A DNA stretch of 64,000 nt from an uncultured Acidobacteriota bacterium (GTDB lineage Bacteria; Acidobacteriota; Thermoanaerobaculia; Multivoradales; Multivoraceae), in assembly GCA_963851415.1 (NCBI GenBank), contig CAWKPF010000002.1:2374526-2438525 (forward strand), given 5' to 3'. Shown one piece after another: positions 20,858 to 64,000 of this stretch. Positions within the stretch are counted from its first letter, which is position 1. Each line of letters begins with the position of its first letter. The notes below the pieces were generated by a model. It ran no database searches. It worked only from the letters and a program-made list of their open reading frames with translations, and was not told the origin of the DNA. The position numbers and the translations under genes are program-made.

Positions 20858-21226
20858 CTACTCGGACTTCTTGCTCTCTGAGGACTTCGACGGAGAGCTC
20901 GTGTCCTTGCTGCTCGAGTCTTTACTAGTCGAGTCCTTGCTGCTCGAGTCCTTACTGCTCGAGTCCTTGCTGTCGCTCTCCTTCTTGGAGCTCTTGCTGT
21001 CGCCGCTCGAGCTCTCCGCGCTCTTTCCCTTGTCTTTGTCCTTGCGTGCATAGTCGGTCACGTACCAGCCCGATCCCTTGAACTGAAACGCCGGTGCCGA
21101 GAGCTGCTTCTCCAGTCTCCGACGAGCGCCGCACTGCGGGCACTTGCGCGGCGGAGGGTCGTTCACACCGTGGATGACCTCCACGATGGATTCACAGGCG
21201 GGACAACGGTATTCGTACGTCGGCAT
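20858..21226 (-). CDS. FmdB-family zinc-ribbon protein with Ser/Lys/Asp-rich low-complexity tail
   Basis: MPTYEYRCPACESIVEVIHGVNDPPPRKCPQCG (CxxC…CxxC FmdB ribbon). Tail SKDSSSKDSSSKDSTSKDSSSKD is encoded by a 15-bp tandem repeat. Confidence 0.65.
   Translation of the reverse strand: MPTYEYRCPACESIVEVIHGVNDPPPRKCPQCGARRRLEKQLSAPAFQFKGSGWYVTDYARKDKDKGKSAESSSGDSKSSKKESDSKDSSSKDSSSKDSTSKDSSSKDTSSPSKSSESKKSE
20890..20990. repeat. about six tandem copies of a 15-bp unit (ctcgagtccttgctg and variants) within the FmdB-family gene
   Basis: Direct reading of + strand 20890-20990: …ctcgagtctttacta gtcgagtccttgctg ctcgagtccttactg ctcgagtccttgctg tcgctctccttcttg…. Confidence 0.7.
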
Positions 21227-21387: not shown

Positions 21388-22266
21388 TCAATCGGTGAAG
21401 CGGTCGCCGTCGGTCTTGATCTGGATTCGGAGTCCGGTCTGCCGTCCTGTCTCCCCGACCGAGGCACCCTGCTCACTCGCTGCGAGGCTGTCTAGATGCT
21501 CCTGCGTCGGCTCGATGTTGACCAGTTGCAAGACCGAGAATCCATACAGCAACCGAACCCCGTTCTCCAGGCCAAGGCTACTCGAACTACAGAGCTCTTC
21601 GAGTGAGGTCTCCTCGTCGATTTCCTTGAGCAGGGAGATCTCCTCTTCTCTCAGCGCCAGATCGATCAGATCGATCGGCTCGTACTGCTTCTCCACCTTC
21701 GAAGAAGACCCCAGCAGCTCGAGCAGCTCCTGTGGCAGCGGATAATACCGGGCTCCTTCCTTGATCGCATAGCGAATCGGGATCGCCAGTCCCTCCTCGG
21801 CCCGGTCGCCCACGTTTCTCTCTCCAGGCTCACCGATACTGAAGGTGACGGTGCCTCGACTCCACCCGAAGAGGCTCCAGACGATCCGCTCGATCTGGTC
21901 TCGCCGGGCCTCGGAGAACTCGGCCGCGGTCATCAATCCCTCCTCGATCAGGAGGGGACCGAGAGAGCCTTCCCCGCGTCGCGAGCGACGGACCCGGCGC
22001 AGCTGCTCGCCGCCAACCAATCCGCATCGCATCAGGTGAGCGCTCAGCGAGTCCTCGGGGCTCGATGAAGTGGCATGAACGATCTGACCGTCTCTCAGGT
22101 AGATTCGCTTGACCACATCGTCACAGATCGCCTCGAGCACCCCAGGCACTCCGAAGCGATCGATCGTGTTCAGCATTTCGGGCAGCGGCCGTTCCGCGAG
22201 CTCGCCCCGATAGTGGTATCGCTCCAAGAAACCCTCCGCCCAGGCTCGGGCCGTTGCTCCCTCCAT
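21388..22266 (-). CDS. hypothetical protein, DUF4388-like (by recollection; uncertain)
   Basis: Codon usage and length support a real gene; no catalytic motif recognised. Start placed at MEGATARAW. Confidence 0.4.
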   Translation of the reverse strand: MEGATARAWAEGFLERYHYRGELAERPLPEMLNTIDRFGVPGVLEAICDDVVKRIYLRDGQIVHATSSSPEDSLSAHLMRCGLVGGEQLRRVRRSRRGEGSLGPLLIEEGLMTAAEFSEARRDQIERIVWSLFGWSRGTVTFSIGEPGERNVGDRAEEGLAIPIRYAIKEGARYYPLPQELLELLGSSSKVEKQYEPIDLIDLALREEEISLLKEIDEETSLEELCSSSSLGLENGVRLLYGFSVLQLVNIEPTQEHLDSLAASEQGASVGETGRQTGLRIQIKTDGDRFTD

Positions 22267-22421
22267 CGGCCGGAGGGCGAGGGACCCGGAGAGAGCACGA
22301 TGAGAGAAAGGACACGACTCAGGAGGGCTTCCATCCACCGAAGGCCGGGAAGTCCTCCTTCGAATGCCCAGCGCGCAATTCTATCGCAACTGTACGGGCG
22401 CGACGGGGTAGCATCTGGCCA

Positions 22422-23648
22422 ATGATCAGCCCGGAAACAGCGTGGGAGGCTCTCGAGCCTCAGCTCGAGCCTCTCGAGAGCGAACAGGTGCGGCGCTCAG
22501 AGGCTGCAGGCCGCGTGCTGACGGCTCCCCTCCGGGCCACGTTGGATGTCCCGGCGGCAGACCTCTCGGCCATGGACGGCTACGCGGTCGGTCCTCGGAT
22601 CGAAGTCGGTTCGCGACTCGAGGTGGCCGGCATCGTCGCGGCAGGGGATCCTCCCGGAGCCCAGCTGGAGGCCGGCAAGGCGCTGCGCATCATGACCGGA
22701 GCCCCGACGCCCACGGGTACCGATCGAATCGTGCCGATCGAGCTCACCGACGGCGGGCGCGACCGCGTGACCCTGCGAGAGGTCCCGCCGAGCGAAGCAC
22801 ACATCCGACGACGCGGCGAGATCGTGCGTGTCGGCGAGACCCTTTTCGAGGCAGACACCCTGCTGACCCACGGAGCTCTCGGTGTGTTGGCCACGCACGG
22901 ACTCGACCGCGTTCCGGTCTACCGCCGTCCCACCGTGGCGATCCTCACCACCGGCGACGAGGTGGTGCCTCCCGAAACCGTCCCGGGCCCCGGTCAACTG
23001 CGCGATTCGCACGGAGATTTCCTCGCCAGTGCAGCAGCCGGACTGAGCCACGTCGAGCGCCTCGGCATCGCGCCTGACGAGCCTGGGGCGCTCACCCAAC
23101 TGGTCGAGCGTGGCCTGCGCTCGGACGTGCTCCTTCTGACCGGTGGAGTCTCGATGGGCGAGTTCGATCTGGTCGAGGACGTGCTGGAGGCGCTCGGCTG
23201 CGAGCTTCTCTTCGACGCAGTGGCCATCCAACCGGGAAAGCCACTGGTCGCCGCCAGGCACGACGGCGGCCTCGTCTTCGGCCTGCCGGGCAACCCGGCC
23301 TCGGCAATGGTCACCTACTGGCTCTTCGTCCGACCGACTCTGCATCGACTGCAGGGCATCCCCGATCGGTTCTGGGGCGATGCCCTCAACGGCGTGCTCG
23401 CCGCTGCCTGCGTCGGTGCGAAGGGACGGGACCGCTTCCTGCCCGCCCAGGTCGGCTTCACGAATGGCGAGATTCGGGTCCACCCGAGACCCCCTGCCGG
23501 GTCCCACGATCTCGGCGCCTACGGAGCCGGCACGGCATTGCTGCGAGTCCCCGCCGGCTCGGCGCCCGCCGAGGCCTCGGCGCCCTGCCAGATCCTTCCG
23601 CTCGGAGAGTGGCGTCCCACGGTTCACTCCACGGAGACTCAGCGATGA
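22422..23648 (+). CDS. moeA: molybdopterin molybdenumtransferase MoeA
   Basis: LSAMDGYAV…, GEIVRVGE…, ILTTGDEVV…, LLLTGGVSMGEFD…, GLPGNPASAMV are MoeA/gephyrin-E signatures. Start at MISPETAWE; upstream ORF-track extension removed. Confidence 0.85.
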   Translation: MISPETAWEALEPQLEPLESEQVRRSEAAGRVLTAPLRATLDVPAADLSAMDGYAVGPRIEVGSRLEVAGIVAAGDPPGAQLEAGKALRIMTGAPTPTGTDRIVPIELTDGGRDRVTLREVPPSEAHIRRRGEIVRVGETLFEADTLLTHGALGVLATHGLDRVPVYRRPTVAILTTGDEVVPPETVPGPGQLRDSHGDFLASAAAGLSHVERLGIAPDEPGALTQLVERGLRSDVLLLTGGVSMGEFDLVEDVLEALGCELLFDAVAIQPGKPLVAARHDGGLVFGLPGNPASAMVTYWLFVRPTLHRLQGIPDRFWGDALNGVLAAACVGAKGRDRFLPAQVGFTNGEIRVHPRPPAGSHDLGAYGAGTALLRVPAGSAPAEASAPCQILPLGEWRPTVHSTETQR

Positions 23649-24043
23649 CCTTCGACCCCGACCTCGACGTCGAGCGCTACATCAGTCTCGCGACCTATCG
23701 AAAGAGCGGCAAGGAGGTCGCCACGCCCGTCTGGTTCGCCCAGGACGGGAATCGCCTGTTGGTCGTCACCGGCGGGGACTCGGGCAAGGTGAAGCGACTG
23801 CGCAACTCGAGTCGCTCTCGCATTGCCGTGTGTGACCTGCGAGGCAAGATCCTGGGAAAGTGGATGCCGACCGATACCCGCATCGTCACAGACGAGAGGG
23901 AGATCGCCACCGCACTGCGTTTGCTGCGGGGCAAGTACGGCGTCCAGTTCAAGATCCTGGACCTCTCGGCCTGGTTCGGGAGACGGCTCGACCAGCGGGT
24001 CTTTCTCGAGATCCGCCCTGGCGCGGAGGGCGGTTCGGGGTAA
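23645..24043 (+). CDS. PNPOx-like / PPOX-class (F420-dependent-type) split-barrel flavin-binding protein
   Basis: YISLATYRKSGKEVATPVWFAQDGNRLLVVTGGDSGKVKRLRN matches the split-barrel PPOX/DUF385 pattern. The ATG overlaps the moeA stop (ATGA). Confidence 0.6.
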   Translation: MTFDPDLDVERYISLATYRKSGKEVATPVWFAQDGNRLLVVTGGDSGKVKRLRNSSRSRIAVCDLRGKILGKWMPTDTRIVTDEREIATALRLLRGKYGVQFKILDLSAWFGRRLDQRVFLEIRPGAEGGSG

Positions 24044-24057
24044 CATGCTTCGCCTGC

Positions 24058-24157
24058 GGAAGCGCTCGGGGGCTGGTGCCTCCTGCGGTCTTCAAAACCG
24101 TTTTGTCGTATGGGATGCCATGCGATGGGTGGGTTCGATTCCCATGCGCTTCCGCCA
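24058..24157 (+). tRNA. selC: tRNA-Sec (selenocysteine tRNA, anticodon UCA)
   Basis: 100 nt. 8-bp acceptor stem GGAAGCGC/GCGCTTCC, discriminator G, encoded CCA. 6-bp D-stem GGGGGC/GCCTCC with 4-nt loop TGGT. Anticodon loop cTTCAaa (U33 then TCA). Long 9-bp variable arm GTCGTATGG/CCATGCGAT. T-arm GTGGG-TTCGATT-CCCAT. Same GGAAG…CTTCCGCCA ends as E. coli selC. Confidence 0.8.
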
Positions 24158-24277
24158 CTTCCCCCGCCTTCGGCGGGGAAGGGCGAAGCGCTTGGGTCTC
24201 GGTGGTCGCACTGTCCTTCCCTGAAGGGAAGGGCAGTGCTCTGCAACGATTCCCATGCCGTGCCCTGGCGAACGTTG

Positions 24278-24426
24278 GAGCTCGCGCCTTGCGGCGCATC
24301 GCGCTAGTGAGGGGGCTCGCGCTTTTCGCGCATCGCGGAAGAGATGGATGTGCATGCACGAGCTCGCGCCTTGCGGCGCATCGCGCTAGTGAGGGGGCTC
24401 GCGCTTTTCGCGCATCGCGGAAGAGA
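24278..24426. repeat. two 67-bp perfect direct repeats separated by a 15-bp spacer containing the palindrome GTGCATGCAC
   Basis: gagctcgcgccttgcggcgcatcgcgctagtgagggggctcgcgcttttcgcgcatcgcggaagaga occurs at 24278-24344 and 24360-24426. Each copy contains two gcgcatcgcg sub-repeats. Lies between the 3' ends of selC and the convergent HTH regulator gene. Confidence 0.8.
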
Positions 24427-24441
24427 GCGTCGGGGAAGCGC

Positions 24442-24720
24442 TCAACCGGTCTGTATGAGCTTTAGGAGCTGGCCCACCTGGGCATGCTGCTCGAGAGGGT
24501 GCCGAAGGGGCACCCGGGGGTTGATCTCGTAGTGGTTCTTGCGTCCGACACGCGTCCGATCGAGCACGCCCTCTTCGACCAGCTCGGCGACGATTCGGTG
24601 CGCTGCGCGCTCGGTGATTCCTACTCGTTCCGCGACCTCACGAAGCGTCAGGTCGGGATCCTGCGCGAGACAGAGCAGGACGTGTGCATGGTTCGTCAGA
24701 AAGGTCCAGGTGCCTTGCAT
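24442..24720 (-). CDS. small winged-helix (ArsR/MarR-like) transcriptional regulator
   Basis: 92 aa; LTLREVAERVGITERAAHRIVAELVEEGVL is a helix-turn-helix recognition segment. Confidence 0.55.
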   Translation of the reverse strand: MQGTWTFLTNHAHVLLCLAQDPDLTLREVAERVGITERAAHRIVAELVEEGVLDRTRVGRKNHYEINPRVPLRHPLEQHAQVGQLLKLIQTG

Positions 24721-24850
24721 CTCCCTGATCGTAGCAGTTCAAGAAAACTAATACACGAAATGTAAAAGTGGACTGAGAATTCATGAATCGACTACCATTG
24801 TCGCTCCTGCCGTCGGGCTCGGATCAGCGAACCTTCCTTCGAGCCCCGCC

Positions 24851-26527
24851 GTGCATCGCTTCATGAGGAGGACCCTTTCCGTGCAACTCGATCTGCGCAA
24901 GCGCTTCTTCGGCAACATTCAAGGGGATCTCTTCGGCGGAGTGACGGCGGGCATCGTCGCCCTGCCACTGGCTCTCGGATTCGGCGTGGCCTCCGGACTG
25001 GAGAATGGCGCTGCCGCCGGCCTCTACGGTGCCATCGCCGTGGGACTCTTCGCTTCTTTGTTCGGAGGCACACCGACCCAGATCTCCGGGCCGACGGGGC
25101 CGATGACGGTCATCGTTGCCGGTCTGGTGGGCAGTATGACCGGTGACGCACGGTGGATCTTTGCCGCGGTCATCCTCGCCGGGCTCTTCCAGATCGTTCT
25201 CGGACTGCTGCGCTTCGGCCGATACATCAACTACATCCCGTATCCGGTGATCTCCGGATTCATGAGTGGCATCGGCGTGATCATCATCATTCTGCAGATG
25301 GCTCAGATCGTCGGCCATCGGCCAGCCGCCGGAACGGTCGAGGCGATCCGAAGGATTCCCGAGGACTTCACCAACGTCAATTTCGCTGCCTTGGCGCTCG
25401 GTCTCGCCACGATTGCCGTGATCTACCTCACCCCCCGGTTCACCAAGGCGGTGCCCGGAGCGCTGATGGCCCTCGGCCTGGTGACCGCGGCGTCGCTCCT
25501 GCTGCCGTTCGAGATCCCGAGGATCGGAGCGATCCCCCGCGGGCTGCCGGCGATGTCCCTGCCGCCTTTCGATGTAGAGATGCTGCGCGTGATCCTCCTC
25601 CCGGCATTCCTGCTCGGCGCAATCGCCAGCATCGACTCCCTCTTGACCTCCCTGGTCGCCGACGCCATGACGAAGACCCGACACGACAGCGAGCGGGAGC
25701 TCTTCGGCCAGGGCCTCGGTAACGTGGTGGCGGGTCTGTTCGGCGGGCTGCCCGGAGCCGGCGCCACGATGCGCACCGTGGTGAACATCAAATCCGGGGG
25801 CACCGGACACCTGTCGGGTGTGATCCACTCGCTGTTCCTGGTCCTGACACTGCTGGTGGTCGCGCCGATCGCCGAACGGATTCCGATGGCGGTGTTGGCC
25901 GGGATCCTGATCACCGTGGGGCTCGGCATCGTCGACATGAAGGGCCTGCGCCACGTGCTGAGAGCGCCCCGCGGCGATGCCGCAGTCATGCTCGTAGTGC
26001 TGGGTCTGACCGTGTTCGTCGACCTGATGTGGGCTGTGGCCGTAGGCATGGTGATGGCCGCCATGATCCTGCTCAAGCGCCTCAGCGACCTCGACCCGGC
26101 CACGCACTCTCCGTTGGTCGATATCGCGGCACACCGCCCCTGGATTCCACCGCTCGAGGTGCCCGACGAGGTCCTCGAAGGGGTCTTCGTGGTCGAAGTG
26201 CACGGCTCGCTGTTCTTCGGCAATGCCGGGCCGCTGCAGAGAAAACTCTCCGGCGCGAAGGACGCCGACGCCATCGTCCTGCACATGGGAGACGTGCCCT
26301 ATCTCGATCAGTCAGGGGTCTACGCGCTCGCCGACCTGGCCGACGATCTCACGGCACACGGCACCCGGGTCTACGTCGCGGAGCTCCAGAGCGAGCCGCG
26401 GGAGATTCTCGGTCTGCTGGGCGTGATTCCGGACAAGATCCCCGAGGAACGGGTCTTCGACTCCGTTCAGAAGGCGATCACGGAGGCCACCGACAAGGCC
26501 CACCGACTCAAGAGCGAGGCTTCGTAG
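24851..26527 (+). CDS. SulP-family anion transporter with C-terminal STAS domain
   Basis: N-terminal …FGGVTAGIVALPLALGFGVASG… SulP signature, about 10-12 TM helices, then the cytoplasmic STAS region (…VLHMGDVPYLDQSGVYALADLADDL…). Confidence 0.85.
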   Translation: MHRFMRRTLSVQLDLRKRFFGNIQGDLFGGVTAGIVALPLALGFGVASGLENGAAAGLYGAIAVGLFASLFGGTPTQISGPTGPMTVIVAGLVGSMTGDARWIFAAVILAGLFQIVLGLLRFGRYINYIPYPVISGFMSGIGVIIIILQMAQIVGHRPAAGTVEAIRRIPEDFTNVNFAALALGLATIAVIYLTPRFTKAVPGALMALGLVTAASLLLPFEIPRIGAIPRGLPAMSLPPFDVEMLRVILLPAFLLGAIASIDSLLTSLVADAMTKTRHDSERELFGQGLGNVVAGLFGGLPGAGATMRTVVNIKSGGTGHLSGVIHSLFLVLTLLVVAPIAERIPMAVLAGILITVGLGIVDMKGLRHVLRAPRGDAAVMLVVLGLTVFVDLMWAVAVGMVMAAMILLKRLSDLDPATHSPLVDIAAHRPWIPPLEVPDEVLEGVFVVEVHGSLFFGNAGPLQRKLSGAKDADAIVLHMGDVPYLDQSGVYALADLADDLTAHGTRVYVAELQSEPREILGLLGVIPDKIPEERVFDSVQKAITEATDKAHRLKSEAS

Positions 26528-54708: not shown

Positions 54709-55728
54709 TCACCTCGGCGCGCCCGAGGTCACCTGCCACTGGTTGAGTCTTCCGGACTCGAAGTTGTCGCCGAACACGGTCGCCCTCGATCTGAACCAGT
54801 CCCGTGACGTGGCGTCTGTCTTCAGGAAGTCCATCAACATTCCCGCGACCTTCGCTCGCCCGATCATCGACGGGTGCGTGCCATCGGCTCCGAGATCGCT
54901 GCAGGCGTACTCCAGGCCGTCCGAACGACCCGGTTGACCGCCCGGCTGTCCGTCCGGGCCGAGACCGTCCGCCCAGAGATACGGGCCCCACGCCAGCCAG
55001 GGAGCTCGAACCGTTCCGGCGGCGGGATTGAAGTTCAGACCCGGGTCGCCGGCCAGTTGATCCTCGATCAGCCACTTCACCGCGAACCCACCCTGATAGG
55101 CAAACGGTTCGGGGTTGAGCGGCAGATTGGCATAGCCGGCGTAGATGCGGCTGCTCAAGTAGGCGATCTCGAGGTTCGGAAAGCGCTCCTTGAGGGTCTG
55201 AACGGTGGTGCGCAGGAGGTCGCGCAGCCAGAGGCTCCGTTCCGGAAACGTCTGCGGTGAAAAGGGGCCGGCGGAGGCGGCGAGCTTGATCCAGGCGACC
55301 TGGACCTGCATCGGCGTGAGGCCGGCCGCGCTCAGCTTCGAATCGAGAAGGCTCCAGGCCAGACTCCCCGGGTCGGCCCACGAGACGGCGTCCATGCTTC
55401 CCTCCGCCCCGTTGACGGGAACGATGTGCGGCTTGATATCCGGGTCGTCGCTGGCCATCGAGATGAAGGTGTCGAACTCACCCTCTGTGTTCGACATCCC
55501 AACGGACAGCAGTCCGATCTTCCCCGAGGTGGGGGCCGCCTGTCCTTGCGGATCCAAGGGTCTGAGCGAGCGAGCGAAATACAGGCCGGCCGACTCGTGC
55601 GCTCCCGGCCGCGTGTTGGACCCGCCCGGATAGAGTCCGCCCTCTTCTCCCTGGTAGGTACCCCTGCCCAGGTCGGTGAGGGGGACCAGTCCAACGGAGG
55701 TGTTGCTGCACGCTCCCCCGGCTCCTCC
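54709..55728 (-). CDS. secreted SGNH hydrolase, copy B (N-terminally truncated, in-frame continuation of copy A)
   Basis: Block I IGLLSVGMSNT, block V DGTHPSMIGRAKVAG (DxxH). 95-100% identical at nucleotide level to 55729-56785 and 63168-64000. Confidence 0.6.
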   Translation of the reverse strand, partial: GGAGGACSNTSVGLVPLTDLGRGTYQGEEGGLYPGGSNTRPGAHESAGLYFARSLRPLDPQGQAAPTSGKIGLLSVGMSNTEGEFDTFISMASDDPDIKPHIVPVNGAEGSMDAVSWADPGSLAWSLLDSKLSAAGLTPMQVQVAWIKLAASAGPFSPQTFPERSLWLRDLLRTTVQTLKERFPNLEIAYLSSRIYAGYANLPLNPEPFAYQGGFAVKWLIEDQLAGDPGLNFNPAAGTVRAPWLAWGPYLWADGLGPDGQPGGQPGRSDGLEYACSDLGADGTHPSMIGRAKVAGMLMDFLKTDATSRDWFRSRATVFGDNFESGRLNQWQVTSGAPR

Positions 55729-56785
55729 GGTCGAGCTCGATCCGAACCAGTCCCGTGACGTGGTGTCCGTCTTCAGGAAGTCCATCAACATTCCCGCGAC
55801 CTTCGCTCGCCCGATCATCGACGGGTGCGTGCCATCGGCTCCGAGATCGCTGCAGGCGTACTCCAGGCCGTCCGAGCGGCCCGGTTGACCGCCCGGCTGT
55901 CCGTCCGGGCCGAGACCGTCCGCCCAGAGATACGGGCCCCACGCCAGCCAGGGAGCTCGAACCGTTCCGGCGGCGGGATTGAAGTTCAGACCCGGGTCGC
56001 CGGCCAGTTGATCCTCGATCAGCCACTTCACCGCGAACCCACCCTGATAGGCAAACGGTTCGGGGTTGAGCGGCAGATTGGCATAGCCGGCGTAGATGCG
56101 GCTGCTCAAGTAGGCGATCTCGAGGTTCGGAAAGCGCTCCTTGAGGGTCTGAACGGTGGTGCGCAGGAGGTCGCGCAGCCAGAGGCTCCGTTCTGGAAAC
56201 GTCTGGGGGGGAAGACGGGCCGCCCGAGGCGGCGAGCTTGATCCAGGCGACCTGGACCTGCATCGGCGTGAGGCCGGCCGCGCTCAGCTTCGAATCGAGA
56301 AGTCTCCAGGCCCGACTCCCCGGGTCGGCCCACGAAACGGCGTCCATGCTTCCCTCCGCACCGTTGACGGGAACGATGTGCGGCCCGATATCCGGGTCGT
56401 CGCTGGCCATCGAGATGAAGGTGTCGAACTCACCCTTCGTGTTCGACATCCCGACCGACAGCAGTCCGATCTTCCCCGAGGTGGGGGCCGCCTGTCCCTG
56501 CGGATCCAAGGGTCTGAGCGAGCGAGCGAGATCGAGGCCGGCCGACTCGTGCGCTCCCGGCCGGGTGTTGGACCCGCCCGGGTAGAGTCCGCCCTCCTCT
56601 CCCTGGTAGCTACCGCTGCCCAGGTCGGTGAGCGGGATCAATCCAACGGAGGTGCTGCTGCACACTCCCCCCCGGTGCACGAGGTGGGACTCGGCGCCCG
56701 CAGGGCCGGCGAGCACCATGAGTGCAACGAGGACCGTGGGCGCCAGCCCGAGCCCGAGCCTCTCCGGGCGTACTCTGAATCTCAT
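55729..56785 (-). pseudogene. secreted SGNH hydrolase, copy A (signal peptide intact; +1 frameshift in G7 tract 56205-56211; C-terminal 20 aa replaced by fusion to copy B)
   Basis: MRFRVRPERLGLGLAPTVLVALMVLAGPAGA signal with GGAGAG RBS. Copy C and copy B read …KLAAS(G/A)GP(S/F)SPQTFPERS… across cttcccccc (G6/none), whereas copy A has cttccccccc (G7), shifting the frame. Confidence 0.6.
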
Positions 56786-57022
56786 TATAGGACTCTCCAA
56801 AAATCGACAAATGCAAGATAGATCACAACCAGATCTCCCATTGTTGCCGATCTGGCGGCCCGATAGCCAGCCCCGGGGAGGGAGACCGCCGGGGGACCAC
56901 TGCGGGAACGGCCCGGTTCTCGAGGGCGTCGCGCTACGGAAGCGGCTCGTATGCAGGTACCTTCGAGGCTCGCGCCGAAGTGGATTCCGATCGATTCTGT
57001 CGGAGTTCTAGGAGCACAGTGC

Positions 57023-57354: not shown

Positions 57355-57399
<45 letters not shown>

Positions 57400-63167: not shown

Positions 63168-64000
63168 TCAGTGCCCGCGGACCTCGAGCATGCCGAGCTC
63201 CCTCACGGAGAGCGCGCCCGAGGTCACCTGCCACTGGTTGAGGTTTCCGGACTCGAAGTCGTCGCCGAACACGGTCGAGCTCGATCCGAACCAGTCCCGT
63301 GACGTGGCGTCTGTCTTCAGGAAGTCCATCAACATTCCCGCGACCTTCGCTCGCCCGATCATCGACGGGTGCGTGCCATCGGCTCCGAGATCGCTGCAGG
63401 CGTACTCCAGGCCGTCCGAACGACCCGGTTGACCGCCCGGCTGTCCGTCCGGGCCGAGACCGTCCGCCCAGAGATACGGGCCCCACGCCAGCCAGGGAGC
63501 TCGAACCGTTCCGGCGGCGGGATTGAAGTTCAGACCCGGGTCGCCGGCCAGTTGATCCTCGATCAGCCACTTCACCGCGAACCCACCCTGATAGGCAAAC
63601 GGTTCGGGGTTGAGCGGCAGATTGGCATAGCCGGCGTAGATGCGGCTGCTCAAGTAGGCGATCTCGAGGTTCGGAAAGCGCTCCTTGAGGGTCTGAACGG
63701 TGGTGCGCAGGAGGTCGCGCAGCCAGACGCTCCGTTCTGGAAACGTCTGGGGGGAAGACGGGCCGCCCGAGGCGGCGAGCTTGATCCAGGCGACCTGGAC
63801 CTGCATCGACGTGAGGCCGGCCGCGCTCAGCTTCGAATCGAGAAGGCTCCAGGCCCGACTTCCCGGGTCGGCCCACGAGACGGCGTCCATGCTTCCCTCC
63901 GCCCCGTTGACGGGAACGATGTGCGGCTCGATATCCGGGTCGTCGCTGGCCATCGAGATGAAGGTGTCGAACTCACCCTTCGTGTTCGACATCCCGACCG
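63168..64000 (-). CDS. secreted SGNH hydrolase, copy C (intact C-terminus; N-terminus beyond window end)
   Basis: …GMSNTKGEFDTFISMASDDPDIEPHIVPVNGAEGSMDAV…DGTHPSMIGRAKVAGMLMDFLKTDATSRDWFGSSSTVFGDDFESGNLNQWQVTSGA…. The only copy retaining the ancestral C-terminal tail. Confidence 0.7.
   Translation of the reverse strand, partial: VGMSNTKGEFDTFISMASDDPDIEPHIVPVNGAEGSMDAVSWADPGSRAWSLLDSKLSAAGLTSMQVQVAWIKLAASGGPSSPQTFPERSVWLRDLLRTTVQTLKERFPNLEIAYLSSRIYAGYANLPLNPEPFAYQGGFAVKWLIEDQLAGDPGLNFNPAAGTVRAPWLAWGPYLWADGLGPDGQPGGQPGRSDGLEYACSDLGADGTHPSMIGRAKVAGMLMDFLKTDATSRDWFGSSSTVFGDDFESGNLNQWQVTSGALSVRELGMLEVRGH

Follow-up and report, generated by a model that had tools for sequence, protein, structure and literature searches.

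Inspection of the window (the whole 64,000-nt stretch of DNA analysed here) reveals that the repeat array is held within a 284-bp spacer between selC and a gene for a small winged-helix (wHTH) regulator, the two genes being convergently arranged. On the selC side, a MoeA gene (22254-23648, plus strand) precedes a PPOX-class F420-type gene that is also located on the plus strand and ends at 24043, and selC lies 14 nt downstream of the latter. Given this short distance, selC is probably read through from the upstream operon. The PPOX gene/selC junction is also present in two relatives (L239 and L240). On the opposite side, the wHTH gene and a SulP permease gene (24851-26527) form a divergent pair that is also seen in relatives, and the repeats are situated in the 3' flank of the regulator gene. 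The identity of both neighbours, as proposed in the initial annotation, was borne out by ARAGORN, by Rfam and by winged-helix domain matches. The 46 ORFs scanned across the window are ordinary chromosomal genes, such as those for thymidylate kinase, the delta' subunit of DNA polymerase III, components of type IV pili or T2SS, a PilS/NtrC-type two-component pair and an RND pump, and the GC content and skew of the window are flat. The features of the intergenic region and its two flanking genes are as follows.

24058-24157, plus strand: selC, tRNA-Sec with anticodon TCA (ARAGORN; Rfam RF01852, 71.4 bits)
24158-24181, plus strand: hairpin H1, with a C(UUCG)G loop, immediately 3' of selC (-15.2 kcal/mol, z -3.9)
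24208-24239, no strand assigned: hairpin H2, with a 14-bp stem (-28.0 kcal/mol on the plus strand and -23.5 kcal/mol on the minus strand; z -7.5 and -6.3, respectively)
24278-24344, no strand assigned: copy 1 of the 67-nt module, composed of GA, sub-repeat A, the 11-nt linker CTAGTGAGGGG, sub-repeat B and GAAGAGA
24280-24303, minus strand: sub-repeat A1, predicted hairpin GC-GA-UGCGCC[GCAA]GGCGCG-A-GC (-14.2 kcal/mol; 45.2 bits to model R1)
24315-24337, minus strand: sub-repeat B1, predicted hairpin GC-GA-UGCGC[GAAAA]GCGCG-A-GC (-10.5 kcal/mol; 42.8 bits to the covariance model)
24345-24359, no strand assigned: unique 15-nt spacer TGGATGTGCATGCAC between the module copies
24360-24426, no strand assigned: copy 2 of the 67-nt module, ending 15 nt before the wHTH stop codon (24442-24444)
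24362-24385, minus strand: sub-repeat A2, identical to A1
24397-24419, minus strand: sub-repeat B2, identical to B1
24442-24720, minus strand: winged-helix (wHTH) regulator gene, 92 aa (PF13412 and MarR-type matches)

The two 67-nt modules are 100% identical (67 of 67 positions) and have a start-to-start spacing of 82 nt. A perfect match of this length cannot be due to chance. Within each module, the GCTCGCGC box and the GCGCATCGCG box both occur twice; this composition and the identity of the modules had been described in the initial annotation and are confirmed at both positions. The boxes are paired in sub-repeat A (GCTCGCGC-CTTGCG-GCGCATCGCG) and in sub-repeat B (GCTCGCGC-TTTTC-GCGCATCGCG), and in the array as a whole an imperfect, GC-rich palindrome of 23/24 nt occurs four times in direct orientation, with identical arms and different centres. 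The four sub-repeats start at positions 24280, 24315, 24362 and 24397, which corresponds to spacings of 35, 47 and 35 nt. Sub-repeats A and B share all 18 of 18 arm positions and show three differences (two substitutions and one indel), all of which fall within the 5-6 central positions. The chance of all differences falling centrally is ∼0.01, a value that carries the caveat that identity itself was used to define the arms.

The 15-nt spacer between the modules resembles neither flank. It contains the perfect 10-bp palindrome GTGCATGCAC at 24350-24359, which had been described as centred in the spacer; the spacer and the palindrome are both as reported, but the palindrome is flush with copy 2. 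This particular palindrome occurs only once in the window, and perfect 10-bp palindromes in general are found approximately once per 485 nt. The chance of encountering one within a 15-nt spacer, assessed post hoc, is p ∼0.01-0.03, and the presence of the palindrome is only mildly unexpected.

Two further structures are located between selC and the array. H1 is likely to be a 3'-end or terminator structure of the selC-containing transcript, and H1 and H2 are probably the real 3'-end or terminator structures parting the convergent selC and wHTH transcripts. A U-tract is absent from both hairpins, and the array lies on the wHTH side of both. Two short fragments of selC are also present in this region. 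The first, CGATTCCCATGC at 24247-24258, repeats 12 nt of the selC T-arm exactly and lies 90 nt downstream of selC and 20 nt before copy 1 (shuffle p ∼0.02). The second, GGAAGCGCTC at 24434-24443, repeats 10 nt of the selC 5' end exactly, overlaps the wHTH stop codon and is one of only two such copies in the window. These fragments could represent either a weak recombination scar or chance.

Folding of the array as RNA, which the initial annotation had suggested for both strands, yielded structure at the level of the single sub-repeats and favoured the minus strand, whereas the whole 67-mer or 82-nt unit showed no gain in stability over shuffled sequence on the plus or the minus strand (z -0.35 to +0.23). 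Minus-strand hairpins have predicted energies of -14.2 kcal/mol for A and -10.5 kcal/mol for B (z ∼-2, p 0.02-0.09 versus shuffles), compared with -10.5 and -7.3 kcal/mol, respectively, on the plus strand (z ∼0). The advantage of the minus strand derives from G.U pairs and a GNRA loop (the GCAA tetraloop in A), which are formed on that strand only. The stems are short, at 5-6 bp plus a 2-bp extension, and through the A/B indel the 6-bp stem and GCAA tetraloop of A become a 5-bp stem and a 5-nt GAAAA loop in B. Judged by these predicted folds, the pattern of A/B differences is hairpin-type variation, unlike that of fixed-spacing protein or dimer sites.

On the minus strand, the array begins 15 nt past the wHTH stop codon, ahead of the stronger hairpins H2 and H1. 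An intrinsic terminator was rejected, as no U-tract or T-run follows any of the four hairpins on either strand, and a terminator scan of 24158-24441 returned no terminator-like site. Searches with the Rfam 15 covariance models at E ≤ 10 gave nothing that overlaps 24278-24426, with only tRNA-Sec passing. The repeats were also judged not to be coding, since a period of 82 is not divisible by 3 and the ORFs overlapping them run into selC as well.

No further copy of the module was detected in the other 63.85 kb by exact pattern or with up to 3 mismatches, nor anywhere else in the window by BLAST with a word size of 7. When a covariance model of the four hairpins was run against the window with filters off, the four copies scored 43-45 bits and the next best match scored 15.9 bits. 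The window alone bounds additional copies at ∼220 or fewer in the 4.74-Mb chromosome. A scan of GTDB with the pattern GCTCGCGCNTTNC(N)GCGCATCGCG, covering one genome for each of 185,579 species, returned no true match; the nine matches obtained were all single, were located inside coding DNA of unrelated bacteria and are attributed to chance. A metagenome scan used a loose two-box pattern, and its yield of at least 120 matches is uninformative about true relatives; those matches inspected among the ones listed were all chance occurrences in coding sequence, for example, in phosphomannomutase-like genes. A scan of viral contigs gave 102 chance matches, BLAST against plasmids and phages gave no match, and, when the unit was compared by BLAST with all 243 fetched loci, no match exceeded the search pattern in length.

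One of the fetched loci, from metagenome contig Ga0310342_100465460 (L059), contains an AT-rich non-coding segment at 140-245 with GGGGGCTCGCGCATTTCGCGCATCGCGC and several GGGCTCGCGCAC repeats. It includes a 27-nt match to sub-repeat B with no flanking similarity and was judged to be unrelated or a chance match.

Among the retrieved orthologues of the wHTH regulator (85, 77, 74 and 72% identity), the wHTH-SulP pairing is kept wherever it is visible. The genes downstream of these orthologues are other ones, and neither selC nor the repeat was found there; the covariance model scored no more than 20 bits in the loci of relatives. Orthologues of the PPOX gene at 84% have selC at the same distance, with the contigs ending inside selC, and a relative at 83% (L241) has neither selC nor the repeat in the ∼125 nt after the gene. 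PPOX orthologues at 57-61% are not syntenic. Among the homologues, those that carry names indicate Acidobacteriota. The initial annotation had suggested looking for insertions downstream of selC in relatives; both the repeat and the selC/wHTH junction proved to be absent from all orthologous loci retrieved. Judged by gene order, the junction is a lineage-specific synteny breakpoint with respect to all retrieved relatives, none of which is close enough to show a one-copy state or any conservation.

In a PPOX relative at 77% (L242), only the first ∼13 nt of selC (GGAAGCGCTCGGG) were observed, at approximately 545-565, followed by an unrelated minus-strand ORF. It seems that selC has been lost or broken at this position in the lineage of this relative or that the short contig is chimeric.

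The reading that we prefer, with a confidence that falls a little short of even, is that a stem-loop doublet lying 3' of the wHTH gene was duplicated very recently within this lineage, and that the locus, if it has a role, may act as a 3'-end barrier. The 67/67 identity implies that the duplication, or the last homogenisation, was recent; the initial annotation had likewise linked perfect identity to recent duplication, an argument that is judged to be sound, with ongoing homogenisation as the alternative. Given that the copies do not abut (67 nt of identity within a period of 82 nt), the event was not plain replication slippage. Instead, the module may have been duplicated with the gain of 13-15 nt of filler, or a discrete unit may have been placed twice. 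In the case of duplication, the event would have left the palindrome-containing filler of 13-15 nt at the junction, and the second copy of the module would have added two hairpins, a change that is probably neutral or nearly so. A head-to-tail VNTR or slippage origin was rejected on the grounds that the identity (67 nt) is shorter than the period (82 nt) and that the spacer is unrelated to the flanks, and TRF called no array at this site. A CRISPR-like reading was likewise rejected, since there are only two repeats of 67 nt, the spacer is 15 nt in length and cas genes are absent.

Other repeated sequences are present in the window. Three copies of an ∼950-bp gene segment, 94-99% identical, are located at 54709-56800 and 63168-64000 and encode a secreted protein without a Pfam match; two are in tandem (period 951-952), and the third is 7.5 kb away. 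One of the tandem copies (55-56 kb) is apparently frameshifted and may be a pseudogene or reflect a residual assembly indel. Given these young paralogues with a period of 951 bp, a recent local duplication is nothing exceptional in this genome. An intergenic (AG)n microsatellite of ∼19-22 units at 57356-57399, a feature uncommon in bacterial chromosomes, is a candidate for slippage, and a coding repeat with a 15-nt period and ∼5 units at 20897-20972 encodes the C-terminal Ser/Lys/Asp-rich tail of a zinc-ribbon (PF09723) protein.

If the duplicated doublet acts as a barrier, minus-strand transcription would place the array in the 3' untranslated region of the wHTH mRNA, and each sub-repeat would fold there into a hairpin of 7-8 bp capped by a GCAA or GAAAA loop. 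The four hairpins would then precede H2 and H1, which probably part the convergent transcripts. In E. coli and Salmonella, REPs can form RNA stem-loops in 3' untranslated regions and protect the upstream mRNA. Any activity of the array may be of the same kind as that of enterobacterial REP-type stem-loops, namely slowing 3'→5' exonucleases or pausing or insulating transcription at the end of the regulator gene. This 3'-barrier mechanism is inferred from the position of the array, the strand asymmetry of its folding and the pattern of A/B differences, and the effect on the wHTH transcript end would most likely be modest at most. Four candidates had been put forward in the initial annotation (a REP/BIME-like element, operator sites, an attachment site and a transcript-3'-end structure), and the last of these is the best supported, given that the array is 15 nt from the wHTH stop codon and that the hairpins favour the wHTH sense strand.

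On a second reading, the 67-mer, or else the 23/24-nt hairpin, would be a member of a REP-, MITE- or REPIN-like family dispersed in the source genome, and the two copies here would be the result of separate insertions or part of a local cluster. REPs number from tens to hundreds per genome and go together with a RAYT transposase; RAYTs themselves are single-copy, and in BIMEs the orientation of the REPs alternates. The form of the array is compatible with such a family: the 23/24-nt hairpins are short, GC-rich, imperfect palindromes that are extragenic and clustered in the spacer between convergent genes. In addition, the discrete ends of the unit, the unrelated 15-nt spacer and the non-abutting copies fit two insertions better than slippage, and the window alone would allow up to ∼220 copies in 4.74 Mb. 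Nevertheless, no further copy, even a diverged one, is present in the other 63.85 kb, no true match was obtained in the GTDB species-representative genomes or the loci of relatives, and none of the 46 window ORFs screened encodes a RAYT, a transposase or an integrase. Terminal inverted repeats and a consistent target-site duplication were also not found. A REPIN or BIME arrangement was rejected because all four sub-repeats are on the same strand; the sub-repeats are direct, whereas a REPIN consists of two REPs in inverted orientation (PMC3337134, PMC3116915). The REP/BIME-like candidate is borne out as a resemblance in form only, with no other copy in the 64 kb, direct orientation and no RAYT in the window, and membership of a dispersed family is considered unlikely.

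The four bipartite boxes (GCTCGCGC-N5/6-GCGCATCGCG) might instead be DNA-binding sites, either operators or iteron-like elements, for the wHTH regulator or another protein. Consistent with this, there are four copies in which 18 of 18 arm positions are identical and the centres are variable, and a regulator gene is close by. The boxes are, however, located 3' of the regulator gene, outside the promoter, and are absent from the divergent wHTH/SulP promoter; the wHTH-SulP pair is, moreover, conserved in relatives that have no boxes. The spacing of the half-sites differs between A (6 nt) and B (5 nt), and the box-to-box distances of 35, 47 and 35 bp are not in helical phase. A better candidate is the AT-rich palindrome ATTCATGAAT at 24779-24788 in the divergent promoter, the only WTTYATRAAW-type palindrome in the 64 kb. 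At the corresponding place in the promoters of the orthologues L012-L014 (which share one protein) and L015, the AT-rich palindromes ATTTATAAAT and TTTCATGAAA are found, although no exact match to the promoter palindrome was found in orthologues L010, L011 and L016. ATTCATGAAT is a likely operator of this uncharacterised small wHTH family. The earlier proposal that the repeats serve as operators for the adjacent regulator finds no support in boxes that lie 3' of the gene and are missing from the regulator's promoter and from all orthologous loci retrieved, and the binding-site reading is regarded as distinctly unlikely.

It is similarly improbable, and to be entertained only as a slender prospect, that the four boxes or hairpins form a functional lineage-specific cis element, either a nascent REP-like family at its first amplification or a tandem platform for a protein. 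In the platform version, an RNA- or DNA-binding protein could link wHTH/SulP expression to the neighbouring selC transcript.

It is very improbable that an integrative element targeting selC left the repeats behind as the scar of its attachment site. In favour of this reading, tRNA genes, selC included, are classic targets of integration, the two short selC fragments described above (the 12-nt T-arm copy 20 nt before copy 1 and the 10-nt 5'-end copy) are nearby, and the selC/wHTH junction is a synteny breakpoint versus all retrieved relatives. The 67-mer itself is without similarity to selC, and a tRNA-derived origin of the repeats was rejected: the best local alignment of selC to the spacer is 12 nt in length, at 24247-24258, outside the 67-mers. 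Furthermore, the copies are only 15 bp apart, the 46 window ORFs screened include no integrase or other mobile-element gene, no anomaly in GC or skew was observed, no match was found in phage, plasmid or viral DNA, and the downstream wHTH-SulP module is chromosomal in relatives. As sequence matches, the 12-nt and 10-nt fragments are too weak to carry an integration story. The attachment site beside selC that had been offered as a candidate is not upheld, given the lack of selC similarity, the 15 bp between copies and the absence of an integrase or a compositional shift.

That the duplication arose as an artefact of assembling or polishing long metagenomic reads is an equally remote possibility, for although the source is a single 4.74-Mb contig and the frameshifted-looking tandem paralogue at 55-56 kb is compatible with residual indel errors, assemblers rarely create a duplication with an 82-bp period and a unique spacer, both copies are error-free and the sequence itself gives no sign of an artefact.

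As for the preferred reading, should its hairpin interpretation hold, the locus would be one more case of short GC-rich stem-loops that build up at the 3' ends of genes in convergent pairs, elements that to our knowledge have hardly been described in Acidobacteriota-like lineages, and a snapshot of array growth through local duplication. The finding matters little outside this genome. The array is a possible strain-typing marker (one versus two copies), and it serves as a warning that a repeat beside a tRNA gene is not automatically an integration scar.

Like the 178-bp repeats of E. coli tyrT, which include rtT RNA (Rfam RF00391), and like selC attachment sites, the modules are repeats downstream of a tRNA gene with short tRNA-identical fragments nearby (12 nt at 24247). 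They differ from both in that the 67-mer is without tRNA-derived sequence and has no Rfam rtT match, and from the attachment sites of selC genomic islands in that no island or integrase lies between or beside the repeats. VNTRs and minisatellites, such as the mycobacterial MIRUs, share with the modules a unit of tens of bp, an intergenic location, direct orientation, identity or near identity and a presumably recent origin; VNTR arrays are head-to-tail, whereas the 67 nt of identity here are shorter than the 82-nt period and are separated by an unrelated 15-nt spacer. Rho-independent terminators are likewise GC-rich hairpins found just after stop codons and between convergent genes, but the array hairpins lack a U-tract and have short stems. 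REP, BIME and REPIN elements of Proteobacteria differ from the present hairpins, which are all direct and have no other copy in the 64 kb or in the genomes searched, but resemble them as 20-40-nt GC-rich extragenic imperfect palindromes that are clustered, often at 3' ends or between convergent genes.
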